From: Alphaproteobacteria bacterium
GTDB taxonomy: Bacteria > Pseudomonadota > Alphaproteobacteria > UBA9219
Reading direction: 5' to 3'
Length of the DNA stretch: 64,000 bases
NCBI GenBank assembly: GCA_009779135.1
Contig: WREW01000001.1
Coordinates: 94,233-158,232, forward strand
This document shows, in pieces, positions 30,257 to 51,755 of this stretch (the first letter of the stretch is position 1; every line of letters starts with the position of its first letter). The translations under genes were made by a program, and so were the position numbers. The notes beneath the pieces were generated by a model, which worked only from the letters and a program-made list of their open reading frames with translations, did not search any database and was not told the origin of the DNA.

Positions 30257-30416
30257 GCACAAAAAAAGTGAAAAAATTAAGTAACTGTTAAGCCAAAACG
30301 AACAATAAAAGAGGATGAAAGAATTGCCAGTCAAAAAAGTGGCATAAGGCGCAGCTTGCGCATAAAATAGGAAAGAAACCTGTAGGATGAGATTTGCTCA
30401 AGAGGAACGCCTTTTC

Positions 30417-30929
30417 ATGTGCCTGTCTCGAAAATTGATTCGCTTGCTTGTTGTTATGGCTGTTTTGCTGGCAAATCCGCTATCCTTTGCGCATGCGGCA
30501 GAAAATGACGATACGCTTGCGCCGCTTCTGGCGTGGCAGAACAAATATCCTTTTGATAAAATCGACGGGCAGGAGTTTTGGGACACCCCGGCCCTAGCCA
30601 CGCGCCTGCGCGCGATGATGGATTCCAAGGCCCATCAGTTTTTTAAAGATGAGCTGGCGCACGGCGTCGTCACGCCGCTTAATGCAAAAGACGGCATTCT
30701 TTATACCGAAATGTGCAAAGCGCATGATTGCGCTGCGGTTCATGTCTATCTTTTTGTGGATACGGAAGCGGACAAAGTTTATATATGCTGGCATGACGAA
30801 GCCGCCAGCCATGATTTGTGGCTGGAGAACGGCAAAACTGCGCAGCTGGAGAAAGGGAGTTGTGTTTTAAAAGAAGGCGAAAAAGACAATATGGATCTTT
30901 TAAGCCGTCTTCGTGGAGCAGGGGCGTGA
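30417..30929 (+). CDS. Ivy-like periplasmic inhibitor of lysozyme/lytic transglycosylase (putative)
   Basis: Signal peptide (LLVVMAVLLANPLSFAHA) and a CKAHDC loop matching the CKPHDC signature of Ivy-family inhibitors; ~170 aa; its stop overlaps the GTG start of the downstream SLT-domain gene (GTGA). Confidence 0.5.
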   Translation: MCLSRKLIRLLVVMAVLLANPLSFAHAAENDDTLAPLLAWQNKYPFDKIDGQEFWDTPALATRLRAMMDSKAHQFFKDELAHGVVTPLNAKDGILYTEMCKAHDCAAVHVYLFVDTEADKVYICWHDEAASHDLWLENGKTAQLEKGSCVLKEGEKDNMDLLSRLRGAGA

Positions 30930-32284
30930 AACAAAACGGGGTGTTTTTTCTTTCAGGCATAACGCGCAGGCTAGGCCTTCTAGCGCTGCTTGGCGGCGTT
31001 ATGTGTCTGGCTGCCCCCGCGCAGGCTTTGGCGCAGACGGCAAAGTTTTTCCCGAGCGGCGAAAGGGTTAAATCAGACGATTCACTGGAAATAATCCGCA
31101 AACGCTGTCAGGAAAACACTTATTACGATCAGATTTTTAATAGCGGGCGACCCAATGATCCCAACATGATGCTTGGCATCGCCACGCGCGAATCCGCCTG
31201 CAATCCCATGGCGAAGAACCCGTTATCTTCAGCTGCGGGCATCTGGCAGGTTCTGGCGAAAACCCACTGGCAATATTGGCAGTCCGTCATCAATGACCAG
31301 GCCAGAATTGAGGCGGCTAACAGCAGATTCTCGGGACTTGGCGGGTTTCTTTATTCAAGCAATCCGGCAGATCGCATGCGTGGCCTTTTGCATGGTGACC
31401 CCAAGCTTTCCACGGATGCGGGTTATAAAGTTTTTAATGAGCAGATGGGCTGGTGGGGCGGCACGCCGGAGGCTGGCATTTGCGGCTTTGCGGGCAGAGG
31501 CAAGATTTTCAAGGCGACGGGCGATTGCGATGCCCTGATGCCGGTGAAATATTACACTGCCTATTACAGCGGAAACCCTTGGACGATCGCGCCGGTCGTC
31601 AAGATTGAAGATCAGAATATCGGCAAAGCCCACCTGATTGATGACAGCGGCAAAGTCGTGGGCATGATTTTGGAATGTGAAGATCGCACCGGAAAGATCG
31701 CGGCCAGTTTGGCGAAGGCAGCCAAGCAATATGGCGTAAGCCGCTCTGATGTAGCGCAGCAGACTTTTGCAAACACCGTCGGTGAAATACATAAGGCCGG
31801 CGGCATTATGCCTACGGGGGATATAAGGGAAAAGTTTTGTCTTGATGATATGAGTCTTTCTTTTGACGCCTCGCGCGCTTTGCTCAGCGGCGCAAGATTA
31901 TTCAGCAGCATGATAAGCAATATTCTGAATAATATTCTGAATCAGGCTTGCGAGTTTGTGCGTTCAACGATTATGACGGCGATTGACAACATGCTCAACG
32001 TCATTTGCATTCCGGTGCCGGATTTTCACATGAGTCTTGATTTGCCGACCCTCCAGCGCAAGGGTTGTACCGGCGGGATGTCCATCGGCAACACGCTGGT
32101 CTCGCTGCAGACGATGCAGAGTCCGGCCATGGCTTCATACCATTTGCAGCGCGTGATGGCGGCCGGCCTTGACAAGATTGCTTCGCCGCGCATTAACGCC
32201 ATTGCCATTCGTAGCCCGCGTATGGGCGTTGGCCTTATGGGCCCCGCTTTTGACGTTTTAGCAATACCCACCAATAAACCATGA
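30926..32284 (+). CDS. secreted protein with N-terminal family-1 lytic transglycosylase (SLT) domain and a novel C-terminal domain
   Basis: GTG start with GGAG 7 nt upstream; signal peptide RRLGLLALLGGVMCLAAPAQALA; catalytic-region motif GIATRESACNP...AAGIWQV (ES ... G-L/I-x-Q); C-terminal ~120 aa paralogous to the product of 32281..33063. Confidence 0.6.
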   Translation: MKQNGVFFLSGITRRLGLLALLGGVMCLAAPAQALAQTAKFFPSGERVKSDDSLEIIRKRCQENTYYDQIFNSGRPNDPNMMLGIATRESACNPMAKNPLSSAAGIWQVLAKTHWQYWQSVINDQARIEAANSRFSGLGGFLYSSNPADRMRGLLHGDPKLSTDAGYKVFNEQMGWWGGTPEAGICGFAGRGKIFKATGDCDALMPVKYYTAYYSGNPWTIAPVVKIEDQNIGKAHLIDDSGKVVGMILECEDRTGKIAASLAKAAKQYGVSRSDVAQQTFANTVGEIHKAGGIMPTGDIREKFCLDDMSLSFDASRALLSGARLFSSMISNILNNILNQACEFVRSTIMTAIDNMLNVICIPVPDFHMSLDLPTLQRKGCTGGMSIGNTLVSLQTMQSPAMASYHLQRVMAAGLDKIASPRINAIAIRSPRMGVGLMGPAFDVLAIPTNKP

Positions 32285-33063
32285 CGACACGCAAGGAAAA
32301 AAGAGGTTCCGCCATGAAAAATGACACACAATCCCAAGCAAAATTACCCGCCCTTATCGCGCGTGCCTTATGTCTTGGCTTTATGATGTTTCTTTTCACC
32401 CCTGCCATCGGCGGCTTTTTGCTGTCAAACCCGGCCTTTGCGCAAAGTGACGCCTATCAGCAAGCCGGCGATCAGATGATGGCCGACGCGCTTGGTCTGG
32501 CAACTGATGAAGAATGCAAGCAGCTGATGGAGCAGATCAATCGCGGGCGCGCCGCTTACAATATAGCCTCAATCGAAGCGCAGAACACGGCTATGGAACA
32601 GGTTTTGATTGCAAACGCAGAAAATCCGATCAAGCTTCACCCACCTGTCCGCGAACGTTTTTGTCTGGATAATATTTTTGCCTCTTTCGATGCGGCGCGG
32701 GCGCTTCTGTCGGGAAAGAATCTGCTCGGCACGATTTTGGCGCAGTTTGACGGCTTGCTCAATCAAGCCTGCAACTGGATCGCAAGCAACATTAAAACGG
32801 CGGTTCAAAACGGGCTGGATGCCATCTGTATCCCGATTTCGCTGCCTTCGTTCAATCTTAGCCTGCCGACATCTTCGCTTTCGCGCAAAGGCTGTAACGG
32901 CGTTTCGCTCAGCAGCGTTCTAAGCATAGACGTCCGCGCAGGCCGTCCCAACTATTTCCGCTGGCCAAGACAATATATGGACGGTGCGGTGGCGCGTTGG
33001 GTTGATGATAATAGGGATACGCTTGGGCCTTATGGCCGGGGCATCTCAGGCCCGCGTTTCTAA
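32281..33063 (+). CDS. secreted protein carrying the same novel Cys-containing C-terminal domain
   Basis: RERFCLDNIFASFDAARALLSGKNLL...LNQACNW...ICIPISLPSFNLSLPTSSLSRKGCNG aligns residue-by-residue with the C-terminus of the preceding protein; N-terminal hydrophobic segment. Confidence 0.5.
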   Translation: MTTRKEKRGSAMKNDTQSQAKLPALIARALCLGFMMFLFTPAIGGFLLSNPAFAQSDAYQQAGDQMMADALGLATDEECKQLMEQINRGRAAYNIASIEAQNTAMEQVLIANAENPIKLHPPVRERFCLDNIFASFDAARALLSGKNLLGTILAQFDGLLNQACNWIASNIKTAVQNGLDAICIPISLPSFNLSLPTSSLSRKGCNGVSLSSVLSIDVRAGRPNYFRWPRQYMDGAVARWVDDNRDTLGPYGRGISGPRF

Positions 33064-33087: not shown

Positions 33088-34617
33088 ATGCAACATCAAA
33101 CTTCGTTTTGGTCGCGGTGCCGCGCAAAGGCTATCCTTGTGGGGATCGTCTTTGCCCTGCTTCTTGCGCCACCGCAGCCTGCAAAAGCGGTGGTGGTGTT
33201 CGATCCGACGCAAACCGTCGCCACGATAGCGCAGTGGGTAGCAAAAGCCGCAGAGTACGCAACCAACTTAGCCGAGCTCGAAGCAATCTGGAGCGCCATC
33301 GAAACAGTCAGCGATACATTTGGCGGGTGGATGGATACGTTGACCGATCTGGTAAACGATCTGGCGGACATCAAGATTGCTAACATCAAAGCGGAAACGG
33401 AACTGGATACACGTCTGGCGGAAGCCGAGATTGAGGATTATACGGCAAACAAGATCGCCGAAGCCACCGCCAAAATTGCGCAAAGAGCCATGCCGTCAGC
33501 GCATCACGGCCTGTGCCGGCAGATCCGCGTTGAAAGCATGGGTGATGCCAGCATATCTTTTACGCAAAGCGTTGAAACGAAGATGATCGAAGCCCTCAGC
33601 GCGCGGGATCGTTGCCCGACATGCGATGGCGCGGGGCCTGCTTATTCGTGGACGCAGGCGGCCACGCGCGAAAAAGGCTCCTATCTCCACCCGCTTGAAG
33701 GTGGCGCGGACAGCCCGATGGCGGATGCGGATATCACCATGCCCAGAAATGAAAAACTATGCATACCGCTTATGCAGCGCGGCACTTGGGTTAATGAGGT
33801 TTCCGGCGTCAGCCTTGAAGTGATCGGCCCCAAAACGCCTGCCCCTTCAAATCTTTGTGAAAGGAGGTATCTGGCTGCGTGGGATTGGCTTACCAATCTG
33901 GCCGGATCGCGCCCGACGCCTCTGTCGGGCCAGCTTCTTCAGACGGATGAAGGCAACCGCCAGCGCGGCATGTATGTGCATTGTCTGGCCATGGAAAACA
34001 CCTTGCTGCAGCAATGCTCGCGCGTCATCGCCTTTCAAACGCGCCCCAACAAGGCAGATCCTTCCACAGAAGGCTTGATTAAACTACAGCAAAACTTTTG
34101 CAAGCTGATGGATGGAACACTCTCGCTTGAACCTTACGATAATTGCGAAAACGGCCTTAGTTTGCACGAGATCAACAGGATTGCGGGCGAGTCATGCAAA
34201 TCCATGGCTTATGCCGTAGGTCAAAAACATGACGGGGCCAGAAATCACGATGTGATGGAAAGCAGCGATATGTGTTCCTTAGCCTGGCGCGTGGCGCAGA
34301 TGTATGAAGATGATATTTATGCAACCTGCATGACGGCCATGGACGCGCTGGACGGCATTAAGAGCTGCTGGGCCGCTGTTGAAGGCGGGCAAAGAGGCTT
34401 TCGGGCCGAAGGTCAGCAGGATGAAAAATGGACACTTGTTTCCATGCGGGATGAATATGCCATGCATTCATCCAAGTTTTATAAGCCGCCCGTGGCCAAG
34501 TTGCAGCCTGTGGCCGGTTATCGCATGCAGCCTGTGCCGTCTGGTTTAGGTGCCATGCCGGTGGGCGTGCCTGCCAATGCGGATGATTTTGCCTGGCCCC
34601 AGACCAGCACGCCTTAA
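33088..34617 (+). CDS. cysteine-rich secreted protein, paralog family member 1 (novel family)
   Basis: AAGGAG RBS; signal peptide; N-terminal VFDPT motif then a long helical region; conserved core YLAAWDWLTNLAGSRPTPLSGQLLQTDEG shared with the next two genes; more than 20 Cys. Confidence 0.6.
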   Translation: MQHQTSFWSRCRAKAILVGIVFALLLAPPQPAKAVVVFDPTQTVATIAQWVAKAAEYATNLAELEAIWSAIETVSDTFGGWMDTLTDLVNDLADIKIANIKAETELDTRLAEAEIEDYTANKIAEATAKIAQRAMPSAHHGLCRQIRVESMGDASISFTQSVETKMIEALSARDRCPTCDGAGPAYSWTQAATREKGSYLHPLEGGADSPMADADITMPRNEKLCIPLMQRGTWVNEVSGVSLEVIGPKTPAPSNLCERRYLAAWDWLTNLAGSRPTPLSGQLLQTDEGNRQRGMYVHCLAMENTLLQQCSRVIAFQTRPNKADPSTEGLIKLQQNFCKLMDGTLSLEPYDNCENGLSLHEINRIAGESCKSMAYAVGQKHDGARNHDVMESSDMCSLAWRVAQMYEDDIYATCMTAMDALDGIKSCWAAVEGGQRGFRAEGQQDEKWTLVSMRDEYAMHSSKFYKPPVAKLQPVAGYRMQPVPSGLGAMPVGVPANADDFAWPQTSTP

Positions 34618-34630
34618 AGGAGAAGAGGGT

Positions 34631-36181
34631 ATGAAAAAACAATCTTCAAAAGGAATAAGAAAAACATGCGCCTTGTGCCTTTTGGCCGGTGCGCTCTTTT
34701 TCGCGCCGCCCATGCGGCCAGCTCATGCTCAACAGACAGTGTTTGATCCGGGAAACTTTGCCGCGCAGGCCGCAGCGTTCTTGGCAGAAACAGCTGCGAT
34801 GGTCGCGGAACATGCGCAGCAAGTGGTCATAAACGGAGCCATCGAAGCGTATAACCTTCTTGTTAAGCTAAAATTTGAATTTCTCAGTTCAGAAAAAGAA
34901 AAAGCGGCTTTTGCGGAGGAAACGGCCAGAAAAGCGAAAATGGAAAACAAAGTCCGCCTTCATGAAGCCAAGCAGGAAGCCAAAACCGCGACAGACACAG
35001 CCGTACGCATAGGCCAGATGGCAGCGGAAACAGTTGAAACCGGCGCGGAAAGCTATCTGGCCAGACAGTTTCTTTTGGCCAATACGACCCCGACATTGGA
35101 TGAGTTTCAAAAGGAAGTTGAAAACTTTATAGCCCTTATGATTAAAAGCCGCACGCGCGGCGTCAACTGGATGGGGATTTCGCCCAAAGCAGCTTGGCTT
35201 AATCATCTCGTGCGCTGCAAATATGGCTATGGCAGCGCCATTGACGGCTATCCGACAAACTGCATCAGCGATAATGAAAAACTGAGGGATGCGGATGTGT
35301 TGCCGATCAGGGAAGACATGGACCTTGAATTTCCGGCTTTGAAAATTGAGGAAAGGGATGAAAACGGCGAAAAAGTAAAATATGTTGTTTTCGAACCCGC
35401 AAATGACGAACAGGCGCTCTGGTACGCCAAAATGCACTATATCATCAACATTGCCGGCCCGCGCCCGGGCCCGCCTTCAGGCGCGAATCTGCTTAAAACC
35501 GATTCAGGCATGCGGGATATGGGCATCTTCGGCACGGCGCAAAGCCGCGACAGCGCTTTTATCCATGCCTTTGCCAAAAAGCTTGCCTATTACACGCGCC
35601 CCAATGACAGCACCGAAGATATGAAAACGCTGCGGGAGCATTTGAACAAAAGATGCGCCCTGACCCGTGGGGCTGACGGCGGCGACGGTATTTTCAGCGC
35701 AGAGCAGATCACAAACTTTTTCCATGACTGCACGAAGGGTCTAAGCGCCTATCAGCTGGATTACATCAACAACGCCATGTGCAAAAACCCGACCCACTAT
35801 CTTGCGCAGGCCATTGACGGTGCCAAGCCGTTTAAAATGTCGGACTCGACCATTCAATGTTCCAAAAACTACAATCTCTGGCGCCAAAGTCTGCTGGTGC
35901 GGGAAAGGGCCTTGATTGACGGCATCAATATTATACACAACAACAAAGGGCTGTGGTCGCAAATGGGTTCGGCAAGAATGGCCGGATGGGATTGGAAGAA
36001 TGATCCTGCCGGCACAGGCTATGCGCTGGTTCACGGTAAACAGGCGCTGCCTTTGCCGGCCGTGATTAAAGAAGCCAAAGCGCCCCTTTTCGAAGGGGAA
36101 AAGCAGCAGGTGCGCAAAGTACCTGTCGGCGTTCCTTTTGTGCTTGATTCCGATGGTCTTCCTTCAACCCTTGCGCCATAG
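34631..36181 (+). CDS. cysteine-rich secreted protein, paralog family member 2
   Basis: GGAG RBS; signal peptide CALCLLAGALFFAPPMRPAHA; QTVFDPGN motif; core LWYAKMHYIINIAGPRPGPPSGANLLKTDSG. Confidence 0.6.
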   Translation: MKKQSSKGIRKTCALCLLAGALFFAPPMRPAHAQQTVFDPGNFAAQAAAFLAETAAMVAEHAQQVVINGAIEAYNLLVKLKFEFLSSEKEKAAFAEETARKAKMENKVRLHEAKQEAKTATDTAVRIGQMAAETVETGAESYLARQFLLANTTPTLDEFQKEVENFIALMIKSRTRGVNWMGISPKAAWLNHLVRCKYGYGSAIDGYPTNCISDNEKLRDADVLPIREDMDLEFPALKIEERDENGEKVKYVVFEPANDEQALWYAKMHYIINIAGPRPGPPSGANLLKTDSGMRDMGIFGTAQSRDSAFIHAFAKKLAYYTRPNDSTEDMKTLREHLNKRCALTRGADGGDGIFSAEQITNFFHDCTKGLSAYQLDYINNAMCKNPTHYLAQAIDGAKPFKMSDSTIQCSKNYNLWRQSLLVRERALIDGINIIHNNKGLWSQMGSARMAGWDWKNDPAGTGYALVHGKQALPLPAVIKEAKAPLFEGEKQQVRKVPVGVPFVLDSDGLPSTLAP

Positions 36182-36189
36182 AGCAAAAA

Positions 36190-37545
36190 ATGCGCCCTGA
36201 AAAACGCACAGCCTTCCGGACATGGCCGCTTTTGATAGGCATCTTTTGCCTTGTGCTTTTGGCCTTTCCAGGACAGGCGAACGCGAGGCCGCTTCGCAAC
36301 GGTGACATTATTTTCGATCCCACCAAATTTGCGCAGTACATGATGGAAACGGGGCAGCAGATCGTCAAGATGGTCGAAAAAGGCGTGGAATATGCGCAAT
36401 CAACGGCGCTTTGGAAGATGACAAAAATGGCGCTGGATAAAGGCTTTGATCTTTTCGATGACGCCAACGACCTCGCCGCCAATGTTGATAGTTTTAACAC
36501 GAAAGTAAACGCAAACCTTGAAATGACATTGGCGGAGGATAAGAGTCAAACCGATACACTGGACACAATGACTCAAATTGAGGCCGACAAAGTAAAAGAA
36601 ACCGCTGAACCGCCGGCTACGGATCAATATCTGTGCAACATGCTGACAGCACGCTCGGTTGAACCTCATATGCGCGACTTTGCGAATATGGTTGCCGCGA
36701 TCGTCAAAAACGGCCATCGGGTTATTTACCGTGGGCCGGGCGATGACGGCACGGGCCCGCAATTCACATGGGATGCGATGAATCTGCGCGCGGGCAGGGG
36801 GGAGCTTACAAAGGTTCCGACCTTCAACCCGCTTGACGACCCGCCGCTGGAATGGCTGGCCCCCAGCAGTGACGATGTGGATATCGATATCGATTTCGGA
36901 ACGCTGAGCCGCTATATATTCAAACTTCCCAAAGGGGAGGCCACGACCAAAATAATAAATGGCGCGCCGGTGAATATTTTGGAAATGAAGCCCGAAGGTG
37001 AAGCCGAAATACGCTGGATCAAGGCCTATCAATATTGCCTCAATTTAGGCGGCCCGCGCCCCTCCATACCGGTTTCCACCCGCCGCACGGATTCCTATAT
37101 GCAAAAGGACGCAAAGTTCAAAAGCTGTCTGTCCCGTCAGGAAGTTTTTATCGATCAATGCGCCCAGCGTCTTGGCATGCTCACCAGACCTAATTGCGAC
37201 ACGGAAGATGAAGGCATGACGGCGCTATGCCAGATCGCCAAGGATGGCTGCGCCGCCGCAACCGATGCCGGCCTTGACCTCCCCCCCAATTTTGGGGATT
37301 GCGGTGACGGGCTCAGCCTTTTTGAGATCGTTTACCTTGATGACAAACTATGCGGCGCCCCCCGCCGTGGGCAGTCTCATACCCTGAGCGGCGCAAATTC
37401 AAGCAGCATCTCCGATACCCTTTATTTTTGTGAGGAATTGGGAGGCTTTTTAAAGAACTTGGTCAACCAGATAGATCAGGATTTTCTAAGGGCGCTGCGG
37501 GGTCTAAGCACGGTGGATGAATGTTATGCGGCCATAGGCCCCTAA
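36190..37545 (+). CDS. cysteine-rich secreted protein, paralog family member 3
   Basis: Signal peptide; DIIFDPTKF motif; core IRWIKAYQYCLNLGGPRPSIPVSTRRTDS; Cys-rich C-terminal region. Confidence 0.6.
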   Translation: MRPEKRTAFRTWPLLIGIFCLVLLAFPGQANARPLRNGDIIFDPTKFAQYMMETGQQIVKMVEKGVEYAQSTALWKMTKMALDKGFDLFDDANDLAANVDSFNTKVNANLEMTLAEDKSQTDTLDTMTQIEADKVKETAEPPATDQYLCNMLTARSVEPHMRDFANMVAAIVKNGHRVIYRGPGDDGTGPQFTWDAMNLRAGRGELTKVPTFNPLDDPPLEWLAPSSDDVDIDIDFGTLSRYIFKLPKGEATTKIINGAPVNILEMKPEGEAEIRWIKAYQYCLNLGGPRPSIPVSTRRTDSYMQKDAKFKSCLSRQEVFIDQCAQRLGMLTRPNCDTEDEGMTALCQIAKDGCAAATDAGLDLPPNFGDCGDGLSLFEIVYLDDKLCGAPRRGQSHTLSGANSSSISDTLYFCEELGGFLKNLVNQIDQDFLRALRGLSTVDECYAAIGP

Positions 37546-37655: not shown

Positions 37656-38504
37656 ATGGATGAAATGCAACAAGATCTTCAAAACGATTCTCAAGCGCGC
37701 TTGCGCGCCACACTGGTGTCTTTCCGCGACATCGGCCAACCTCTGCTTCAAGGCCTGATGGAAGTCGAAGGCTTTGGCGAGGACAAAAAACAATTCACCC
37801 CGCAAGAGCGCGCGGCGATGTTTGAGGAGCTGGTTGAAAGCACAGTCATGCTCAGCCAAAAACTCGCGGAAGAAATAACGCAGCAGCAGCAGGATCTGGA
37901 TAATGCCGCGCGTTGGGGCCTTGCCTCTGCGGCGGCGCAGGTTGTGGCGGCCGCCTTTAAAACATCCGGCGAAGCGATGACAGCGGAAGACGCAGACGTC
38001 CTTGTGTCCTTGGTCACGCAGTTGCAGGACAGATTCAAAGGCCAGATACCGGCAAACAGCAGCGGTGCGCTCAGCAGCGTGGCCATGTTCCGCGCCAAGA
38101 TGATGGAGGCCTTTGTGCCGGTCATCGGCGCTGTGGCACAATATGCTTTTGGCCGTGGCGAGCATGAGCTTTTGGCGGAAGTGAGTGAGCGCCTTGTGAA
38201 AATGGCCGATCAGGTCACCCGCACACTGGCCGCCCCCGGCAGCACGCCTGAGCAATGGCGCCTTTTATGCTGGAATGTTTTGCGCGCGGCCGGACAGATT
38301 TATACGGAAAGCCACTATGCCGAGGCCGACCGGATTCTTTACATGAACCCGCAGGAACGCTCCATCTATCTTGCGCAGCATGGCCAGATGGTTCCCATGA
38401 CGCAGGTGTGGCAGGCTTTTAACCAGCGCATGGCCATGCTGGCCACACTGGCCGCCTATCTTAAAGTCCCCGAAACGGCAGGTTTTGAGAAAGAAATCTG
38501 GTGA
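37656..38504 (+). CDS. hypothetical cytoplasmic protein
   Basis: 282 aa; acidic; no signal peptide or TM; sits between secreted-protein genes and the transglycosylase. Confidence 0.4.
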   Translation: MDEMQQDLQNDSQARLRATLVSFRDIGQPLLQGLMEVEGFGEDKKQFTPQERAAMFEELVESTVMLSQKLAEEITQQQQDLDNAARWGLASAAAQVVAAAFKTSGEAMTAEDADVLVSLVTQLQDRFKGQIPANSSGALSSVAMFRAKMMEAFVPVIGAVAQYAFGRGEHELLAEVSERLVKMADQVTRTLAAPGSTPEQWRLLCWNVLRAAGQIYTESHYAEADRILYMNPQERSIYLAQHGQMVPMTQVWQAFNQRMAMLATLAAYLKVPETAGFEKEIW

Positions 38505-39012
38505 TGTGATGGTCGCTGAAAAAGCCATACTCGCATGTCTTCTTCTCGCCGCACACACCTACGAGGTTCCGCCGGCCGTTATGGTCGGCATCAGGCATGT
38601 GGAAGGCGGCTATGTCGGCGCGCAGATCGGCCCCAACCGCAACGGCACCTATGATCTTGGCATCATGCAGGTCAACACGCTGTGGATTCCCGCTTTGGCG
38701 CGCGCTTGGCAGGTGGATCATAAAACAGCGCATCAGCTTGTGCGGGATGACGCCTGCGTCAACATGCGCGTATCAGCATGGATTTTAAAGCAAAAGATCA
38801 GGGAAGCGCGCGGTTCGCTCTATGGCGGAATCGCTTATTATCATTCCTCGACCCCGGGAATCGGCGCGCGCTATGCGTCCAAAGTGCTTACGGTGCTCGC
38901 AAACAAAGGTCTTTTGAAACGGGACTATGCAAAGCCCGATCAAAGAGCTTATTATGCCAGTGCTGATTCTCTTCCGCAGCCCCAGCAGGGCAGGGAAGAC
39001 GTAAGACAATAA
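38485..39012 (+). CDS. lytic transglycosylase (VirB1 / R64 PilT-like, SLT domain)
   Basis: Signal peptide; IRHVEGGY ... YDLGIMQVNTLW ... AYYHS catalytic-Glu and GLMQ-type motifs of transfer-associated lytic transglycosylases. Confidence 0.7.
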   Translation: MRKKSGDVMVAEKAILACLLLAAHTYEVPPAVMVGIRHVEGGYVGAQIGPNRNGTYDLGIMQVNTLWIPALARAWQVDHKTAHQLVRDDACVNMRVSAWILKQKIREARGSLYGGIAYYHSSTPGIGARYASKVLTVLANKGLLKRDYAKPDQRAYYASADSLPQPQQGREDVRQ

Positions 39013-39027: not shown

Positions 39028-39990
39028 ATGGTTCGCATGAAGGCCTTAAAGTTTGGACGTGCCAAAGGGTATTTTTTAGCGCTTTTCCTGGCCTTTGGTC
39101 TTTTTGCAAGTTCGGCGGCCCAAGCGCAGATTATTCCGCCGCCGCCTTCTATGGCCGCCGCGCTGCAGACGCTTTTTTCTATTAAGGAGCCGGCGCCGGA
39201 TGTGATGAGCGTTCCCGCCCTTTCCAATCTGATTAAAGGCGGCGCGTCACTTTACCATCTGGGCCAGCGCTCGGACATGCATGGCTGGCTGATTGTGCAA
39301 GATGGCCGTATCCAGATGATTTATCTTTCGCCTGATAAACAAACGGTTTTGATCGGCGGCATGTTTTCCTCTCAGGGCGACAATGTAACCTCGCCGCAGG
39401 TTGAATCCCTGCTTGACCGGAATGGCGAAGTCCGCGCGATTTTTGAAGGCCCTTCAAACCAAGCACAGGCGCAGCAGCCCTTGCCATCCAGCCAGCCATC
39501 CGCGCAACCCCCGCAGGAAAATCTTTCACCCGGGGAGCGTTTGATGCGCGATATTCAGGCCGCCTCTTCCGTAACATTGGGCGGTTCGACGAAAGCGACG
39601 CTTTACATGGTGGTGGCACCAAGCTGCCCCAACTGCAAAAGCACTTGGAAGGAGCTGAAAGACGCCGTTACGCAAGGCCGCCTGCAGGTTCACTTGATTC
39701 CGGCCTACAATTCTGAAGGCCCGAATGAGCGCGCCATGGCCGCGCGCCTTCTTCGCGTTGACAACCCGCTTGAGGCATGGAACCGTTTTGTTGACGGCGA
39801 CAATCAGGCCCTTGTCGGGCAAGCGCAGCCACAGGATCTGGAGGCTGTCGATAGCAACATGAATCTGATTAGCAAGTGGAACATTCAAGGCTTTCCCTAT
39901 CTGGTTTATCGTGGCCGCGATGGTCAGGTGAAAATCGTTCAGGGCCGCCCGCAGCGTATCGGCGCTGTGCTTGATGACCTCCCGCAATAA
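39028..39990 (+). CDS. thioredoxin-fold disulfide isomerase (TrbB/DsbC-like)
   Basis: Signal peptide; CPNC active-site motif in VVAPSCPNCKSTWKEL; R64 TrbB and F TrbB are thioredoxin-like proteins of conjugation systems. Confidence 0.55.
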   Translation: MVRMKALKFGRAKGYFLALFLAFGLFASSAAQAQIIPPPPSMAAALQTLFSIKEPAPDVMSVPALSNLIKGGASLYHLGQRSDMHGWLIVQDGRIQMIYLSPDKQTVLIGGMFSSQGDNVTSPQVESLLDRNGEVRAIFEGPSNQAQAQQPLPSSQPSAQPPQENLSPGERLMRDIQAASSVTLGGSTKATLYMVVAPSCPNCKSTWKELKDAVTQGRLQVHLIPAYNSEGPNERAMAARLLRVDNPLEAWNRFVDGDNQALVGQAQPQDLEAVDSNMNLISKWNIQGFPYLVYRGRDGQVKIVQGRPQRIGAVLDDLPQ

Positions 39991-40323: not shown

Positions 40324-40434
40324 GAAAAAGGGCTGTTTTTTGTGAAAGCGTTAGCGCATGTAAACTGTTGTAACGAATCTTTGGGTGCTTTATAAGTTAT
40401 GGGGCTTCATGAAGGACAAGTAAGGAAGGACCTT

Positions 40435-40944
40435 ATGATAACGTCAAAACTCTCTTATGGCTTGGCTTTAGGCGTGCTTGGCTTAGGTTTGAGCGGCTGC
40501 GGCTCGTCGGACTATTTTACATCATCATCGCGCTCTGTTGCGGTGCAGCCTGATCTTGTCAGTTTAAGATTGGCGCAGTCGGCTGAGAAAGCGTCCAAAG
40601 CGCTTGATGTCATAGCGGGCATTGAACAGGTGCGCGCCCCGCAGCTTCCTGCGGTGGAAGATTACAGCATGGCGCCGCCGGCCCTGCAGCAATTTATCAC
40701 GGTGCGCTGGAACGGCCCGATTGAACAGATCGTTGAAGTTCTGGCAGGCCGCGCCGGTATGAGCTTTGCGACAAGCGGCCAGCCTGCGCCCGTTCCCATT
40801 CTTGTGACGGTGGATGTTTATCAAAAGCCTTTGATTGAGGTTCTCCAAGGCATAGGTCTGCAGGCCGGACGCCGTGCGGATCTTGCCGTGAATGCTCCCA
40901 ACAATGTGATCGAGATCCGTTATGCGCCGGTTGATAGAATCTAA
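40435..40944 (+). CDS. DotD/TraH-like outer-membrane lipoprotein (T4BSS core)
   Basis: GGAAGGA RBS; lipobox LGLSGCGSS; C-terminal N0-like block RWNGPIEQIVEVLAGRAGMSFATSGQ...PILVTVDV...LIEVLQGIGLQAG...IEIRYAP resembles DotD; followed by DotC- and DotB-like genes as in dotDCB. Confidence 0.65.
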   Translation: MITSKLSYGLALGVLGLGLSGCGSSDYFTSSSRSVAVQPDLVSLRLAQSAEKASKALDVIAGIEQVRAPQLPAVEDYSMAPPALQQFITVRWNGPIEQIVEVLAGRAGMSFATSGQPAPVPILVTVDVYQKPLIEVLQGIGLQAGRRADLAVNAPNNVIEIRYAPVDRI

Positions 40945-41785
40945 GAAACAAACCACGATGCTGCTTGCTTTCGGCGTGATGCTTTTGGCGCTGAACACAG
41001 GGATGGCCTACGCGCAGCAAACTGTCGCTTTGGAAGCCTCCCCGCCGCCTCCGGCCCTGCAGGAGCTGCAGGAACAATCCGTGGGCGACAAGCCGGACAA
41101 AAGCTCGACCGTGGGCCTGCAGATTCGCGGCGATGCCTTGCGCGAAGCTGCTTTGTCTTATGGCGCGCGCGGCGGCCTTGCCTCCAGAACGTTTGAGATC
41201 CAGCGCCGCCTTGTTGAGCATCAAACAAGTCTTGGCAAAACATTTGATTTCAACAAACTCCTGATCTCTGCCCCCTCGGGGCTTTTGATTGAGCCGCCTA
41301 TTGTCTCCGAAGCGCAGCGCGCTGTTTTGGTCGGCTCAAGCGGTCAGGAAGCGGCTGTTGCGGATCGCATTTTCCGCATCAATCAGGCGGCGCGCATTGT
41401 GACCGCGCCGAGGGATTGGCGTCTTTATCTTGAACGCGACTGGGGCCGTGTGGATCCTCCCCCCTCTCTGCTTCTTCCCAAAGACAAGGATGAGCGGGAG
41501 CTGTGGCGTCAACTGGTGCAAGAAGGATGGGATGCCGGCATTGAGCAGGCACAGGAAATCTTTGAAGCCGATCTTGATCGTTTAACAAATGACTTTGTAG
41601 GGATGGTGCGTTATCGCGAGCTGCTTGCGCAAGGCATGATATCACCGCCTTATGCGATGCACGAGGACCGCGGCGTTACGGGCGGCGGGAAAGAGATGCG
41701 TGTAGGTGATCGCGGTGTTGCGATTACCGGACCTTCCGTTCTTATTCCTCGGAGCCAGATGTGGACGACGACGCCCCAACAGTAA
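40922..41785 (+). CDS. DotC/TraI-like T4BSS core protein
   Basis: Signal peptide; ALREAALSYGARGGLASR matches the conserved DotC/TraI block; 287 aa; position between the DotD- and DotB-like genes. Confidence 0.7.
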   Translation: MRRLIESKKQTTMLLAFGVMLLALNTGMAYAQQTVALEASPPPPALQELQEQSVGDKPDKSSTVGLQIRGDALREAALSYGARGGLASRTFEIQRRLVEHQTSLGKTFDFNKLLISAPSGLLIEPPIVSEAQRAVLVGSSGQEAAVADRIFRINQAARIVTAPRDWRLYLERDWGRVDPPPSLLLPKDKDERELWRQLVQEGWDAGIEQAQEIFEADLDRLTNDFVGMVRYRELLAQGMISPPYAMHEDRGVTGGGKEMRVGDRGVAITGPSVLIPRSQMWTTTPQQ

Positions 41786-43134
41786 AGCCACCGAAAGATT
41801 CATCCAAAGACAAGGTTTCGGTGGATAAGGAACATGCGTTCCTCGCCGGTTGGGAGGATGAGCCCCTACGCATCCAACCCGAACATGTGGATGATCTTCT
41901 TTTGTGGTGCATCAAAGCGCGCTCCACGGACATCAGCTTTCAAACAGACAGGCCTGTGACGATCGAGGTGGACGGCGTCCTCTATCCCGTCACGCGGCGC
42001 TCTTTGGATTCGGCGGATCTGACGAATATTTTGATGAAAATCTACGGCCCCGATGCGCTGGCCAAACTGGCCTCGGGAACGGATCTTGATTTATCCTACG
42101 AAGTCAGGCCGGAGCGGCTGACGCGCTTTCGTTTCCGCACGAACATCACGGCGATTTTAAGTCGCGGGCGTGATTCGGTGCAGATCACCATGCGTGTTTT
42201 ACCTTCTTTGCCGCCCACCATGCTGGAGCTGGGCATTGAAGATGAAATTATCCGCAACTGGTCGCCGCGTCAGGGATTGGTTTTGGTGACAGGCCCAACA
42301 GGAAGCGGCAAAACAACGCTTTTGGCCTCGGGCTGCCGCATGTTGATCGAACGCAAGCAAGGCTGCGGCAAGCTTTTGACCTATGAAGCGCCGATTGAAT
42401 ATGTCTATGACACGATCACGGGCGAACATTCGCTTGTCGCGCAGTCGGAGATTCCGCGTCACATAGGATCCTTTGCCGCCGGTGTGCGCAACGCGCTGCG
42501 GCGCAAGCCCAACATTATTCTGGTGGGTGAAGCGCGCGACCGTCTTACGATGTCGGCCGCGATCGAAGCAGGACAAACAGGCCATCTTGTTTATTCAACC
42601 GTTCATACGGTCGGCGTGGCGGCCACGGTACGGCGTATTGTCAGCGTTTTTGAACCATCAGAGCGCACGGAGCGCGCCTATGCCCTGATGGAAACGCTGC
42701 ACATGATTGTAACGCAAGCCTTGGTGCCGCGCAAAGGCGGCGGACGCATAGGCTTGCGTGAATATCTGGTGATTGACGACAACATCCGCGAGCAGCTTTT
42801 AGACATGCCCGTTGACCGCTGGACAGCGGAAGTCCAGCGTTTTCTTGTACGCTATGGGCGCACCATGGAGCAAACGGCCAACAAGGCTTTTGAAGACGGA
42901 AAGATTGACCGCCAGACCTATCTTTTCCTGACCAAGGGCCTTTCGGGCGAAGAAAGCCTGCTTGAGGAAGAAGCAGAGGAAAAAAGCCCGAAAAAAGGCA
43001 AAAGCGCTGCCAAAACCAAAGAACCACCCCCCAGCGAACCCTTGACCTACAAGGACGTCCTGCGCGCTGTCGATGAACTTGATCTTCAGGAAACCCCAGA
43101 TCATCCCGACGACGACGACACCACAATGATCTAA
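41761..43134 (+). CDS. DotB/TraJ-like secretion ATPase (PilT/VirB11 family) with extended acidic/Lys-rich C-terminal tail
   Basis: Walker A GPTGSGKTT; Asp box; ILVGEARD; His box YSTVHT; 457 aa, ~80 aa longer than Legionella DotB; tail EEEAEEKSPKKGKSAAKTKEPP...DDDDTTMI. Confidence 0.85.
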   Translation: MDDDAPTVKPPKDSSKDKVSVDKEHAFLAGWEDEPLRIQPEHVDDLLLWCIKARSTDISFQTDRPVTIEVDGVLYPVTRRSLDSADLTNILMKIYGPDALAKLASGTDLDLSYEVRPERLTRFRFRTNITAILSRGRDSVQITMRVLPSLPPTMLELGIEDEIIRNWSPRQGLVLVTGPTGSGKTTLLASGCRMLIERKQGCGKLLTYEAPIEYVYDTITGEHSLVAQSEIPRHIGSFAAGVRNALRRKPNIILVGEARDRLTMSAAIEAGQTGHLVYSTVHTVGVAATVRRIVSVFEPSERTERAYALMETLHMIVTQALVPRKGGGRIGLREYLVIDDNIREQLLDMPVDRWTAEVQRFLVRYGRTMEQTANKAFEDGKIDRQTYLFLTKGLSGEESLLEEEAEEKSPKKGKSAAKTKEPPPSEPLTYKDVLRAVDELDLQETPDHPDDDDTTMI

Positions 43135-43614: not shown

Positions 43615-43937
43615 AAACGGCATCATTTTATATGCCGCTTGGTAAGGGAAAATTAAGCTTTACCAAAAACAAAAGCCCGTAAAGCCGTGTTTAAACGGGC
43701 ATCAATTTTGATTCATGTTCGAAACGAGCCTTTGTCTTTGAAGCGCAAAAAGCGTCCGCCGGTTTTCGCGCGCAAAGGAAAAAAAGAAAGCGCAGAATCA
43801 TCATTCCCCAAGATCTGTTGTGGAAACGCCACAGTCATAAGGCTATTCCAAAGGGCGATTCCGACGCGGTTGCTCCTCTGTTATTTATCGCCTACCATTC
43901 TCGAGTGATTCGCCTTAGCTCGACGAAGGGCCTAAAT

Positions 43938-45026
43938 ATGCACAGAAAAAACAAAACTCACGTTATCTTGTCCGTTCGCTGCCTTGTGCTGACGATAGGT
44001 TTTTTGACCGCAGCAGCTCCGGCCTATGCGGGCTTTCAGTGGATTGCGCCCACGCCGCCTGCTGCGCCAGCGCCGCCGGTCTGGACGCCGCCGCAGGATC
44101 AGAATCCCTACGCCCAGACGCCGATCCAGCCTTATCCTGATGTTGTGACCTATGACCCGTATGACGGTTATCCGCAGGCTCTGCCGCCGGTGACTCAGCC
44201 TGAAACGGTCATGCCTTCCGGCGCTGCAACGGACATCGTGCAGGGTTTTGGGGATAATGTGCCGCTTTCGATCGCGCTGCGTCAGGTTTTGCCGCAGGAT
44301 GTCGGTTTTTCGGTGGCGCAGGATGTCAGTTTGGGAACACCGGTTTCTTGGCGCGGCGGCGCGCCTTGGCGTCAGATTATGGGCGACATGCTCACCCCTG
44401 CGGGTCTGAGCTTCCGCGAACAAGGCCCGATTGTTCAAGTGATAAGGGCAGGGGAGCTTCCTGCGGTAACGCAGCCTTTGTTGCCGCCCCCACTGCCCGC
44501 CCCCATGGCGCGGACGCCGGAAATGGCGCCTAGCTTTGCACCGCCTGCAAACGCGCCCATGGCGATTGTTCCCTCTGCGGAAAATTACGCGCGGCCACTT
44601 CCGCCGCCGCCTGCCGCCGCGCCATCTATGGCAACAGGCTATTTTCCTGCCGCGCCGGCGGGGATGAAGCCCGCGCCCATGGCTGCGCCGATGCCGATGC
44701 CCGCTATAGGCGGCCCTGCGGTGCCTACCAATTTTGTCCAGACAGGAACCATTGACAGCTGGAGCGCCAAAAGGGGCGATACGCTGCAAAATGTTCTTAA
44801 AAACTGGGCCAAACGCGCGGGGGTAGAAATGAACTGGAAGGCGGAATATGATTTTCCGCTTGAAGTCGGCGTATCTTTCACCGCGTCTTTCGAGGAAGCT
44901 GTGCGCAATCTTCTGATAGGCTTTCAGGATGCGAAACCCCAGCCTGTAGCGCATATGTATAACAATCCGGTTGTCGGCCAAACCGTGCTCGTTGTTGAAG
45001 TGCGCGGCAACGATTATAACAAGTAA
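43938..45026 (+). CDS. PilL-like thin-pilus protein (Pro/Ala-rich, C-terminal TcpQ-like domain)
   Basis: ATG 43938 with GAAGGG RBS; signal peptide; long proline-rich middle; C-terminal TGTIDSWSAKRGDTLQNVLKNWAKRAG...VEVRG resembles the TcpQ/PilL C-terminal domain. Confidence 0.5.
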   Translation: MHRKNKTHVILSVRCLVLTIGFLTAAAPAYAGFQWIAPTPPAAPAPPVWTPPQDQNPYAQTPIQPYPDVVTYDPYDGYPQALPPVTQPETVMPSGAATDIVQGFGDNVPLSIALRQVLPQDVGFSVAQDVSLGTPVSWRGGAPWRQIMGDMLTPAGLSFREQGPIVQVIRAGELPAVTQPLLPPPLPAPMARTPEMAPSFAPPANAPMAIVPSAENYARPLPPPPAAAPSMATGYFPAAPAGMKPAPMAAPMPMPAIGGPAVPTNFVQTGTIDSWSAKRGDTLQNVLKNWAKRAGVEMNWKAEYDFPLEVGVSFTASFEEAVRNLLIGFQDAKPQPVAHMYNNPVVGQTVLVVEVRGNDYNK

Positions 45027-45037
45027 CGAGGAACCAC

Positions 45038-46591
45038 ATGATCGCTCGCCGCCTTGCCATTCTTTTATGTGTTGTGGCCCTTGTGGCCTGTGAAAATAAC
45101 GAAAAGAATCGCACCCTCTTGGATCGTTATGCCGACCAAGCAACACGTCTGGGGCAAGAGGCTTTGGCGCCGGCCCCCAAGAAAAGCTATGATCCGCTGA
45201 CAGTTTCGGACAAGCTCTGGTCGGGAAGCAAGGCGGTGCGCCTGAATCGCGGCATTCCTCTGCCCGGAAAGTTTGAACATCCGCGCGGCGTCACGCTGAT
45301 CTCGAGTGAGCCGATTTCCCTGCGTGAAATTGCCTCATCACTTGGCGGACAGACGGGTATTCCCGTCCGTCTTTTGGACGGCGCGAATGAAGATATTGTC
45401 GCCGCCTCGCGTATGCCGATTGCCTATGAAGGCCCCTTATCCGGCCTTTTGGATCTTGTCGCGGGCAATTATGGCGTAAACTGGCGCAATGACGGCCACT
45501 CCATCAAGATTTCACGGTATGAAACGCGCATTTTTGTGATTGAATCCCTGCCCGGCAAGCAAACCATTAGGGACGGTATTGCGGGAACGGCAACAGACCT
45601 GAATGCCACTTCCGGCAGCGGTGGTGGTGGCGGCACCGGCGATTTAACGCTGCAACAATCTGCGGAAATGAGCAGTGAGTACAAGATCTGGGATGAGGTT
45701 CAGCAGGCCTTGACCGCCATTTTGGGCGGGGTCGGCACTTTGGTGGTTTCGCCTTCTTCAGGCACGGCCACCGTGACCACAACACCTGAAATCATGGCCG
45801 CAGTTTCGCGGTTTATTGAAGAAGAAAATCGCCGCCTTACACGCCAGATTGCCATTAATATTGAATCTTTCTCGGTGGATCTGGCTGAAAATTCGGATTT
45901 CTCCTTGTCCTTTGAAGCGGTGCTTAAAAAGCTTACGAATTTAGGCGTCAGCGTCAGTGGCGTCACAGGCGCCACCGCCACAACGGGCATGGGCAATATC
46001 TCGATCGCCGTTCTGAATCCCGAAACGGTGGGGCAAGTCACAAGCATATTTTCGGCCCTTTCATCCGTGGGGGATGCGGCGCGTGTGGCCCAGTTTCCCT
46101 TAACAACGCTGAACAGCCGCACGGTTTCAAGGCGCGTGGGGCGTGAACTCAGATATGTGGCAGAGATTAACTCAACGCTGGATGGTCAGGGTTTTTCATC
46201 AAATGGGGTAAAAGTGGACACCGTTCGTGAAGGTTTTTCGATTCAATTAACGCCGCGCCTTTTAGAAGATGGGCGGATTATGATGCAATATTCGCTCCAA
46301 TTTACGGAACTTCTCAACATGGAAGTCTTTGATACTGGTGGTGGCGGACGTGTCCAGCTTCCTGAAACAGCAAACCGCATTTTTGTGCAGCAAGCCATGT
46401 TGCAGAGCGGATCAACCCTGATTATCGGCGGCTATGATGATGAGAAGGTTTCGCAAAAATCGCAGGGCATGTTCGGCGCTTATAACTATATATTCGGCGG
46501 CGGTGCGATCAACGCGAAAGTGCGAACCATGATGTTTATTGCAATCACGCCACAAGTTCTTGAGGTTCTACCCAGACCGGAGCATGGATAA
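45038..46591 (+). CDS. PilN-like secretin lipoprotein
   Basis: Lipobox LVACENN; N-terminal secretin-N-like region; C-terminal secretin block LIIGGYDDEKVSQKSQGMFGAYNYIFGG...MMFIAITPQVLE. Confidence 0.7.
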   Translation: MIARRLAILLCVVALVACENNEKNRTLLDRYADQATRLGQEALAPAPKKSYDPLTVSDKLWSGSKAVRLNRGIPLPGKFEHPRGVTLISSEPISLREIASSLGGQTGIPVRLLDGANEDIVAASRMPIAYEGPLSGLLDLVAGNYGVNWRNDGHSIKISRYETRIFVIESLPGKQTIRDGIAGTATDLNATSGSGGGGGTGDLTLQQSAEMSSEYKIWDEVQQALTAILGGVGTLVVSPSSGTATVTTTPEIMAAVSRFIEEENRRLTRQIAINIESFSVDLAENSDFSLSFEAVLKKLTNLGVSVSGVTGATATTGMGNISIAVLNPETVGQVTSIFSALSSVGDAARVAQFPLTTLNSRTVSRRVGRELRYVAEINSTLDGQGFSSNGVKVDTVREGFSIQLTPRLLEDGRIMMQYSLQFTELLNMEVFDTGGGGRVQLPETANRIFVQQAMLQSGSTLIIGGYDDEKVSQKSQGMFGAYNYIFGGGAINAKVRTMMFIAITPQVLEVLPRPEHG

Positions 46592-47871: not shown

Positions 47872-48652
47872 ACTTTCGCTAACGGTTCTGGCTGTTTGTG
47901 TGGGCTTTGGGCTTGTTCAGCTTGCTCAGGCACAAAACACAGCCGCGCCTGAAGCTGCACCTGTCGCCGCAAGCACGGCCAATGAAGATTCCGCAGCTGT
48001 GCGGGATGCGCTAAACGCCATTGATATGCCGTCAGCGCCAGCGCCGCTGCCGCCACCGCCGCCCAAGGTTGAAAAACCCGTAAGCCCCGCGCCGTCAAGC
48101 AAAGGAATTGACCTTAGCGATGCAACGGAAGAGTCAAGCGTTGTTCCGGCCTCTGTCAAAAAAATCGTTGATCGCCTTGATAACACGACCAAGGAAATCA
48201 TGCTGGAAGATTTGAACGCCGCGCGTGAAGCCATCGTAAAACTGGACGTCTTGATCGACATTGAAAAAAGACTGACCAACCTTATGGACATCCGGCGTGA
48301 TCGGGACGAAGCGGCGGCCGCAGCGGCGCCCCCGCCCGGACGCGGCATGCCCCCACCCCCGCCGCCGATTTTTGATATGCCGATGCCCGTCATGCCCATG
48401 CCGCCCATACCGCAGGATATGAGTTTCGGCCGCGATCCTGAAATCGTCCGCATCGTTGGTGCCGGTGGAAACTACATGGCGCAGATGAGGGATGAGGGCG
48501 GTGCCGTCAAACAACTCCGTGTCGGCGACAAGCTGCCCAATGGTTCCACGGTTTCTTCCATATCGCGCAATGGTGTGACATTGACGATGAGCGACAAAAA
48601 GACCAAGACCGTTCAAGTGCAGGATGTTGGAACTATTTTCAGCAACCGCTAA
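47855..48652 (+). CDS. PilP-like thin-pilus assembly protein (Pro-rich)
   Basis: Signal peptide; Pro-rich linkers; C-terminal beta-rich region typical of pilotin/PilP-like proteins; positional. Confidence 0.4.
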   Translation: MKIAAKLSLTVLAVCVGFGLVQLAQAQNTAAPEAAPVAASTANEDSAAVRDALNAIDMPSAPAPLPPPPPKVEKPVSPAPSSKGIDLSDATEESSVVPASVKKIVDRLDNTTKEIMLEDLNAAREAIVKLDVLIDIEKRLTNLMDIRRDRDEAAAAAAPPPGRGMPPPPPPIFDMPMPVMPMPPIPQDMSFGRDPEIVRIVGAGGNYMAQMRDEGGAVKQLRVGDKLPNGSTVSSISRNGVTLTMSDKKTKTVQVQDVGTIFSNR

Positions 48653-48703
48653 GGAAGAACATGGCCAGGGGAAGCTGAAGTCGGTTTGCAATGTTAAGAA
48701 TGG

Positions 48704-51741: not shown

Positions 51742-51755
51742 AAAGAGAGATTGCC

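Follow-up and report, generated by a model that had tools for sequence, protein, structure and literature searches.

Tandem cysteine-rich exported proteins of a chromosomal type IVB secretion locus as probable divergent relatives of IcmX and TraW

The paralogous genes and their products

We analyzed a 64,000-nucleotide stretch of alphaproteobacterial DNA (GTDB lineage UBA9219; the window is this whole stretch, positions 94,233 to 158,232 of contig WREW01000001.1 in assembly GCA_009779135.1) in which three consecutive plus-strand genes, here called A, B, and C, lie upstream of dotD, dotC, and dotB. The presence of these dot genes marks the locus as type IVB, and its gene content identifies it as a chromosomal type IVB secretion system (T4BSS) of the MPF_I class. 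A, B, and C are probably divergent, amplified members of the protein class that contains IcmX of the Legionella Dot/Icm system and TraW of IncI-type plasmids. The open reading frame (ORF) call agrees with the original prediction for this DNA, a reading of its letters alone, that three adjacent genes encode signal-peptide proteins here (Table 1); product A is one residue shorter than the 510 amino acids first given for it. Public assemblies call the same three proteins and annotate them only as hypothetical proteins. The gap between A and B is 13 nucleotides and that between B and C is 8. AGGAG-type ribosome-binding sites precede the ATG codons of A and B, and a weaker one precedes C. A promoter and terminator scan of the region from 30 to 40.5 kb gives counts that do not differ from those of shuffled sequences.

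The N termini of the three products are basic and then hydrophobic, closing in an AxA site, as read by eye from the translations without a predictor. Because these are N-terminal Sec-type signal peptides with an AxA site, A, B, and C are very likely exported. A form of the (V/I)FDP(T/G) motif follows directly (VVFDPT, TVFDPG, and IIFDPT, respectively), and the translations contain both these motifs and all three core strings that the original prediction had quoted as shared. The layout of A comprises the signal peptide, an N-terminal helix of ~95 residues, a cysteine-rich extended domain, a C-terminal helix, and a disordered tail with a conserved terminal peptide. BLASTP alignments are nearly full length for A and B (25% identity, E = 1e-25), A and C (25%, E = 5e-26), and B and C (23%, E = 2e-24), which by sequence comparison makes the three full-length paralogs, far beyond chance. 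They had been described as a tandem triplication. Three adjacent full-length paralogs are indeed there, but a recent triplication is ruled out, since the copies are only ~25% identical and the ortholog of the third copy is last in the array in six other genomes. On this evidence the array is better described as an old and variable one of one to five copies.

An exhaustive HMMER search with a profile of the three sequences against 1.84 billion cluster representatives (50% clustering) finds 147 proteins at E ≤ 1e-3, 90 of them at E ≤ 1e-30. Nearly all of these relatives have 430-550 residues, and none of the ten that were looked up has a name. A word-indexed homolog search, run with B and with a 106-sequence profile, returns only the query's own proteins, and a tblastn search with C of 72,556 plasmids gives no match. 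Pfam and NCBIfam scans of A, B, and C find no family, with the sole exception of a weak, sub-threshold match of the N-terminal VFDP motif to DUF4141 (E = 0.006); the Pfam set used lacks the TraW model PF28212, and TraW and IcmX controls have no Pfam matches, so the Pfam negative is uninformative for the TraW/IcmX class. As far as curated family models go, the earlier statement that these proteins belong to no known family stands.

In an alignment of 106 members, the positions that are at least 90% conserved (A numbering) are G273 of the AG(P/S)RP motif, R319-P320 of the TRPN motif, G356, S358, and the cysteines C143, C310, C338, C353, C370, and C396. The motifs noticed originally are thus not confined to A, B, and C but retained across the family. 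Retention and loss of cysteine columns go pairwise (phi = 0.7-1.0), as expected for disulfide partners in an oxidized periplasmic or extracellular protein. The putative pairs are C338-C353 of A, which corresponds to C342-C367 of B and C354-C371 of C (phi = 1.0); C370-C396 of A, which corresponds to C384-C410 and C388-C414 (phi = 0.7); and C299-C427 of A, which is absent from B and corresponds to C313-C445 of C (phi = 1.0). C143 and C310 of A, equivalent to C149 and C324 of C, each occur in at least 91% of members, and B has neither. The two pairs that B is missing (C143/C310 and C299/C427 in A numbering) occur in 68-96% of the family, and the sequence of B suggests a structurally relaxed or specialized copy. 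B retains a pair, C196-C211, that is lacking in A and C. The description of all three proteins as having many cysteines holds for A, with 13 in the mature part, and for C, with 11, but not for B, with 6.

Members occur in long and short forms. In the long forms, including A and B, an extra low-confidence linker of ~60 residues precedes a conserved terminal peptide with the approximate motif GVPxxADE(I/V)x(L/W)PxxV(S/G)Q, which is found at the end of 33 of 125 full-length representatives, whereas shuffling predicts 0.46. The short forms, namely C and every copy that is last in its array, end just past the final helix without this peptide. A docking role for the peptide is a testable guess.

Relationship to IcmX and TraW

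AlphaFold2 monomer models of A (predicted local distance difference test score, pLDDT, 83.1; predicted template modeling score, pTM, 0.65) and C (pLDDT 86.1, pTM 0.70) were built from the 106-sequence alignment. Both have a helix of ~95 residues after the signal peptide, a second helix, a middle domain that mixes helices with beta-hairpins and carries the cysteines, and a C-terminal helix of 45-57 residues. In a structure comparison with 48,164 chains, IcmX of PDB 9ngy is the single top match for both A (comparison values 8.5, 242, and 6.6) and C (8.3, 211, and 6.8). IcmX has N- and C-terminal helices and an "extended domain," and it sits as a pentamer on DotA (10.1101/2025.06.23.660953). The predicted models therefore contain the elements of an IcmX-type fold: a long N-terminal helix, an extended middle domain, and C-terminal helices. 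The AxA sites and the presence of DotD, DotC, DotB, DotI, DotH, DotG, and DotN in the locus further indicate Sec-exported periplasmic proteins within a T4BSS gene set. Reviews list IcmX and TraW as the type IVB counterparts of VirB5 (PMC12624023).

Profile comparison suggests a link to TraW. The 106-member family profile aligns by hhalign with a single TraW sequence at E = 0.37, with 110 close TraW sequences at E = 0.053, and with 15 diverse TraW sequences at E = 2.8e-4 (probability 41%, 158 columns), so that the signal strengthens with a more diverse TraW profile. An enlarged family profile gives E = 8.9e-5 and a probability of 60%, and the aligned span across both runs is 126-158 columns. 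The real alignments score 39-42, against 11-19 for the controls (the reversed and 20 column-shuffled TraW alignments). The family core, including the W..L.NLAG.RP.P.G...T..G and TRPN motifs, aligns with TraW residues 211-371, and within it the core of A, YLAAWDWLTNLAGSRPTPLSGQLLQTDEG, faces the TraW segment DAATAYMKNTSRPSAGRALGKGEVNTQSGR. No significant result is obtained by hhalign between the family and a single IcmX sequence. Even the TraW profile detects a single IcmX sequence no better than at E = 0.13, and the absence of a direct match to IcmX is thus expected. When the family hidden Markov model (HMM) is run against all ORFs of an IncI tra region and a Legionella dot region, TraW ranks first without reaching significance (E = 0.15). 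An hhalign comparison of the family with IncI TraF gives nothing.

Several observations weigh against this relationship. Neither of the curated models, NF033888 for TraW and NF038225 for IcmX, matches A, B, or C at E ≤ 1; in control runs NF033888 recognizes TraW at 1e-166, NF038225 recognizes IcmX at 8e-163, a divergent Janthinobacterium TraW is found at 3.5e-27, and there are no cross-matches. Sequence-profile searches of the PDB with 3 and with 106 sequences give only spurious coiled-coil matches, and Foldseek finds nothing significant in the PDB, with IcmX outside the top 50. HHalign assigns a probability of no more than 41-60%, with an alignment confined to the C-terminal half. The models of A and C share one alignment and hence are not independent, and the structural support comes from monomer models. 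The array is also not adjacent to dotA/traY, unlike icmX and traW. In favor of the relationship, no canonical TraW or IcmX is found with the TraW HMM and IcmX phmmer searches among 4,638 ORFs of 63 related loci, though a canonical gene may lie elsewhere in the genome, beyond the loci searched. The closely packed gene string shared with the dot genes, the divergent homolog in the corresponding slot of sister loci, the high evolutionary rate, and the paired cysteines also speak for the assignment. Because the curated models do not match, the HHalign probabilities lie in this range, and the models are not independent, we rate the homology as probable and not proven, and we assign a probability of roughly 70% to A, B, and C being divergent, amplified members of the IcmX/TraW class. 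Probably, then, they belong to this class at the superfamily level and work like IcmX and TraW.

Type IVA VirB5 and TrbJ models and solved VirB5-type structures (TraC, TrwJ, and CagL) give no match to the family, and there is no Pfam or NCBIfam match at E ≤ 1 to F-type TraH or other named type IV secretion system (T4SS) components. Ordinary membership in the TraH or TrbJ families is rejected, as no HMM match exists. The loose VirB5/TrbJ analogy drawn by the original prediction survives in part: the best structural match (IcmX) and the best profile match (TraW) are both VirB5 counterparts, but direct similarity to VirB5, TrbJ, or TraH is absent. Its label of a novel family fares similarly. No curated model matches and the proteins are far from ordinary members of any T4SS family, yet sensitive methods give a very distant kinship to a known T4SS component, and this profile and fold link to IcmX and TraW comes close to placing them in a characterized family.

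Relatives in other genomes

Contigs that encode family members show the same synteny. A genome scan seeded with DotC finds 57 loci, all in metagenome-assembled genomes (MAGs), which are labeled Micavibrio sp., M. aeruginosavorus, Bdellovibrionales, uncultured Rhodospirillaceae, or Alphaproteobacteria; the Bdellovibrionales label arises because the NCBI taxonomy files Micavibrio there. One to five family copies lie in tandem upstream of dotD. The last copy in the window and in loci L001, L002, L007, L008, L010, and L017 forms one orthologous cluster (C type) of short forms of ~470 residues. The copies upstream of it cluster by lineage, which suggests repeated duplication. The family HMM has no matches in more distant loci, where the slot directly upstream of the ~280-residue gene holds a signal-peptide protein of 444-547 residues that phmmer bridges to the family. 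An hhalign comparison of the slot-protein profile with the family gives E = 6.7e-6 (probability 85%, 239 columns). With the slot protein linked to the family in this way, every T4BSS of this kind appears to have one or more members at the array position.

According to the genome paper for M. aeruginosavorus ARL-13, evidence is lacking for both type III and type IV secretion systems (PMC3189940), and ARL-13 is not among the 57 DotC-seeded loci. The T4BSS may be absent from this cultured strain. A literature search found no paper on a T4BSS in Micavibrio-like bacteria.

Evolutionary rate

When the window is compared with nine related loci, A, B, and C have 22-36% identity to their relatives. Similar ranges are found for two products encoded just upstream, SLT-488 (20-30%) and p260 (25-34%). 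Identities downstream of the array are 55-64% for p282, 61-71% for the VirB1-like transglycosylase, 53-71% for DotD, 70-78% for DotC, and mostly 72-83% for DotB. The mean identity over genome pairs is 76% for DotC and 36% for the C-type copy. SLT-488, p260, A, B, and C together constitute a hypervariable 5' module ahead of a conserved T4BSS operon.

In the closest genome pair (L002 and L010, with DotC 92% identical), the nonsynonymous substitution rate (dN) of the family is 0.20-0.33, against 0.03-0.10 for other T4BSS genes. The gene-wide ratio of dN to the synonymous rate (dS) is 0.15-0.21 for the family and 0.04-0.12 for the other genes, with dS near saturation. No gene-wide positive selection is seen by dN/dS in this one close pair at near-saturated dS. 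By these comparisons the family proteins evolve faster than the rest of the machine. In Legionella, IcmX is the least conserved Dot/Icm protein (PMC6761968). Within the four-copy array of L002 and L010, identity climbs along the copies, from 55% in the first through 60 and 66% to 72% in the last.

Alternative interpretations

A, B, and C could instead be periplasmic or surface accessory proteins of this T4BSS lineage, such as adhesins or cell-wall scaffolds that act with their SLT neighbors, in which case the likeness to IcmX would be one of long helices only. The lack of a curated model match, the negative Foldseek search, the distance from dotA, and the way in which the genes travel with the hypervariable exported SLT-488 and p260 as one fast-evolving module all agree with such a role. 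We consider it unlikely, however, because IcmX is the lone top structural match for two paralogs, because the TraW profile provides an independent signal well above its shuffled controls, and because no other IcmX/TraW candidate is seen in the locus or beside DotA. The thin pilus of the same locus offers a different setting. It is of the IncI-like type IVb kind, and its PilL/TcpQ-like, PilN, PilO, PilP, PilQ, PilR, and PilS-like genes lie 6-15 kb downstream of the array, so that the three proteins might be its tip adhesins or minor pilus proteins. This is very improbable, given that the signal peptides end in AxA, that dotD, dotC, and dotB separate the array from the pil genes, that proteins of 450-516 residues with helical structure are unlike pilins, and that the predicted fold matches IcmX. 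Identity as pilins is rejected, as the N termini lack a prepilin leader with its G|(F/M)xxxE processing site.

Fast evolution and variable copy number would also suit secreted toxins, effectors, or other exported cargo that is delivered to prey or host cells. The conserved extreme C-terminal peptide of the long forms could be a recognition tag for such cargo, and a truncated IcmX is released into Legionella culture supernatants (cited in PMC6761968). We nevertheless regard a cargo role, which includes the translocated substrates raised by the original prediction, as quite improbable in view of the signal peptides and the IcmX-like fold. Type IVB substrates are recognized in the cytoplasm, and classical Sec signal peptides are unusual for them. 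All three proteins carry N-terminal Sec-type signal peptides, and on this ground we reject them as T4BSS effectors. Pfam and NCBIfam also reveal no enzymatic or toxin domain, and the predicted fold matches that of a structural subunit. Practically every related locus whose upstream sequence extends far enough has at least one copy in a set place, which fits a part of the machine better than its cargo.

Proposed mechanism and comparison with known systems

If A, B, and C are IcmX/TraW-class proteins, then each would be exported by Sec through the signal peptide seen in its sequence. The cysteine-rich middle domain would undergo oxidation in the periplasm, where the DsbG/TrbB-like isomerase encoded ~1.5 kb downstream probably assists; the pairwise co-loss of cysteines and the gene linkage point to this step. 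The N- and C-terminal helices would bundle with four other subunits into a plug or tip, seated on the DotA pentamer within the outer-membrane core complex and directed toward the target cell, as the fold similarity to IcmX in 9ngy suggests. The Ala/Val/Thr-rich start of the N-terminal helix would probably lie at the distal end of this plug. More speculatively, one to five diverged copies may give alternative, mixed, or stacked tips that tune target recognition, with the conserved short form C as a basal DotA-docking version and the variable long forms A and B as exposed versions. The very fast evolution would then reflect exposure to the target, as has been proposed for IcmX in Legionella and for the amplified TrwJ in Bartonella. 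A more elaborate and doubtful model has interchangeable or stacked IcmX-like rings in which C docks on DotA and A and B attach through their C-terminal peptides, building a variable, extended distal tip that sets which prey or host is engaged by the chromosomal type IVB system in Micavibrio-like bacteria, which are related to epibiotic predators. Such a structure would be the type IVB analog of Trw amplification in Bartonella and possibly part of a T4BSS for predation.

The family resembles Legionella IcmX (PDB 9ngy, NF038225) in being exported, having 450-520 residues, and being encoded in a T4BSS, as well as in its long N-terminal helix, inserted extended domain, and C-terminal helices. Each is the fastest-evolving protein of its own system (PMC6761968). 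There is, however, no detectable sequence similarity between them, and the cysteine-rich extended domain of the family has three to six putative disulfides, whereas the disulfides described in the Legionella complex are in DotA (10.1101/2025.06.23.660953). The family genes occur in one to five tandem copies upstream of dotD, whereas the one icmX gene is next to icmW and dotA, and the long forms carry a C-terminal peptide that IcmX does not have. Among known proteins, TraW of IncI-type MPF_I plasmids (NF033888) alone has a sequence-profile link to the family, and it falls in the same role class, listed with VirB5 and IcmX (PMC12624023). It differs in having ~400 residues and no conserved cysteines, in being a single-copy gene of a traW-traX-traY arrangement rather than of a tandem array, and in being plasmid-borne, in contrast to a family that is not found in the 72,556 plasmids searched. 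Thus, the family is distinct from both IcmX and TraW in cysteine content, gene position, copy number, and C-terminal peptide.

Among type IVA systems, TrwJ (VirB5) of the Bartonella Trw system shows the same tandem duplication, diversification, species-variable copy number, and divergence far above that of the rest of the machine. This amplification has been interpreted as producing variant surface structures that set target specificity (PMC2883598). Trw is a type IVA system of the pilus-forming class in which amplification of trwJ goes together with that of trwI and trwH and extends to the pilin gene trwL, whereas in the system of the window the IcmX-like gene is repeated by itself and no VirB2 pilin takes part. 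VirB5, TrbJ, TraC, and CagL share with the family a signal peptide followed by a helical protein, and their class role is that of a pentameric stalk or tip; they have no HMM match to the family, and the family proteins are about twice as large.

If this assignment is correct, it would fill the "missing VirB5/IcmX" slot in a widespread, unstudied chromosomal type IVB system of Micavibrio-related alphaproteobacterial MAGs. It would also mean that in type IVB machines the central tip or gatekeeper subunit can be multiplied to one to five copies, can be heavily disulfide-bonded, and can evolve several-fold faster than the apparatus. Earlier work had described such amplification with fast divergence for the type IVA VirB5 of Bartonella. 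The ~147 unnamed sequence clusters could serve as the seed of a family definition that joins TraW and IcmX, and the paralogs would be concrete candidates for target-specificity determinants. The relevance is mainly to questions of T4SS evolution and target specificity.

Genomic context

The original prediction placed the three genes upstream of a VirB1-like transglycosylase, a TrbB-like protein, and the Dot genes, and the domain matches agree (Table 1). Its picture of periplasmic or surface proteins is borne out as well, with signal peptides, cysteine pairs, and Dot neighbors pointing to exported, disulfide-bonded proteins in an MPF_I locus. The DsbG/TrbB-like isomerase is a likely oxidative-folding helper of these cysteine-rich proteins. 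The 86-residue C-terminal domain common to SLT-488 and p260 contains cysteines (BLASTP 49% identity, E = 2e-24), and p282 may be an uncharacterized T4BSS component or chaperone. A Pfam T4SS_TraI match (E = 2.6e-75) falls within dotD-dotC-dotB (40399-43134).

Table 1. Features of the array and its surroundings (window positions)
Feature	Position	Strand	Remarks
Exported protein at Ivy position	30387-30929		180 aa
SLT-488	30818-32284	+	488 aa; SLT (lytic transglycosylase) domain (Pfam SLT, E 3.6e-6) and Cys-containing C-terminal domain
p260	32281-33063	+	260-aa exported protein; shares 86-aa C-terminal domain with SLT-488; always directly upstream of array
Paralog A	33088-34617	+	509 aa, long form; ORF call
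Predicted Sec signal peptide of A	33088-33189	+	residues 1-34, cleavage after AKA (AKA|V)
Conserved core spotted originally	33868-33954	+	A residues 261-289, YLAAWDWLTNLAGSRPTPLSGQLLQTDEG; family alignment
C-terminal peptide of A	34555-34614	+	ends MPVGVPANADDFAWPQTSTP; hallmark of long forms
Paralog B	34631-36181	+	516 aa, long form; lacks two near-universal cysteine pairs
Predicted signal peptide of B	34631-34729	+	cleavage after AHA (AHA|Q)
C-terminal peptide of B	36119-36178	+	ends VPVGVPFVLDSDGLPSTLAP; counterpart of A peptide
Paralog C	36190-37545	+	451 aa, short form; stops right after last helix
Predicted signal peptide of C	36190-36285	+	cleavage after ANA (ANA|R)
p282	37656-38504	+	282-aa conserved protein; always follows array; no signal peptide; no family match
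TrbN/VirB1-like lytic transglycosylase	38485-39012	+	NCBIfam TrbN E 5e-22, below curated cut-off; Pfam SLT
DsbG/DsbC-type (TrbB-like) periplasmic thiol:disulfide isomerase	39028-39990	+	CPNC motif; NCBIfam DsbG E 6.7e-22; Pfam Thioredoxin_2, DsbC_N
dotD	40399-40944	+	NCBIfam DotD E 2.7e-23
dotC	40922-41785	+	between dotD and dotB
dotB	41761-43134	+	NCBIfam DotB E 6e-113
Type IVb thin-pilus set	43818-53052		IncI-type; between dotB and dotI
Two pilin-like genes of pilus set	51756-53052		
GcrA-like gene	53187-53693		after pilus set

The pilus set is complete-looking, with genes for a TcpQ/PilL-like protein, PilN secretin, PilO, PilP, PilQ ATPase, PilR, and the two pilin-like proteins. Downstream of it comes a string of genes for DotI, a DotJ-like protein, DotH, DotG, a weak DotF-like match, a TraQ-like protein, and DotN. 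The locus as a whole is bordered by housekeeping genes, with suf, pepN, and polA upstream and tyrS downstream, and the G+C content shows no step in the window. A DotA/TraY homolog of 910 residues (TIGR04346, E = 1e-84; L064:13575-16307, minus strand, equivalent to ~65.5-68.2 kb) lies just outside the window, ~28 kb downstream of the array and ~2.3 kb past tyrS. It sits between a 194-residue gene and RecQ, without a TraW/IcmX-like neighbor, and it is separated from the other T4BSS genes by tyrS and an AAA-ATPase gene.

In L001, L002, and L003, genes for Wzy_C (O-antigen ligase or O-oligosaccharyltransferase-like) and Ivy (lysozyme inhibitor) proteins precede the SLT gene. The window has no Wzy_C gene at the corresponding place. 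At the Ivy position it encodes an exported protein that has no Pfam match and is 22-31% identical to the Ivy-position proteins of those loci.

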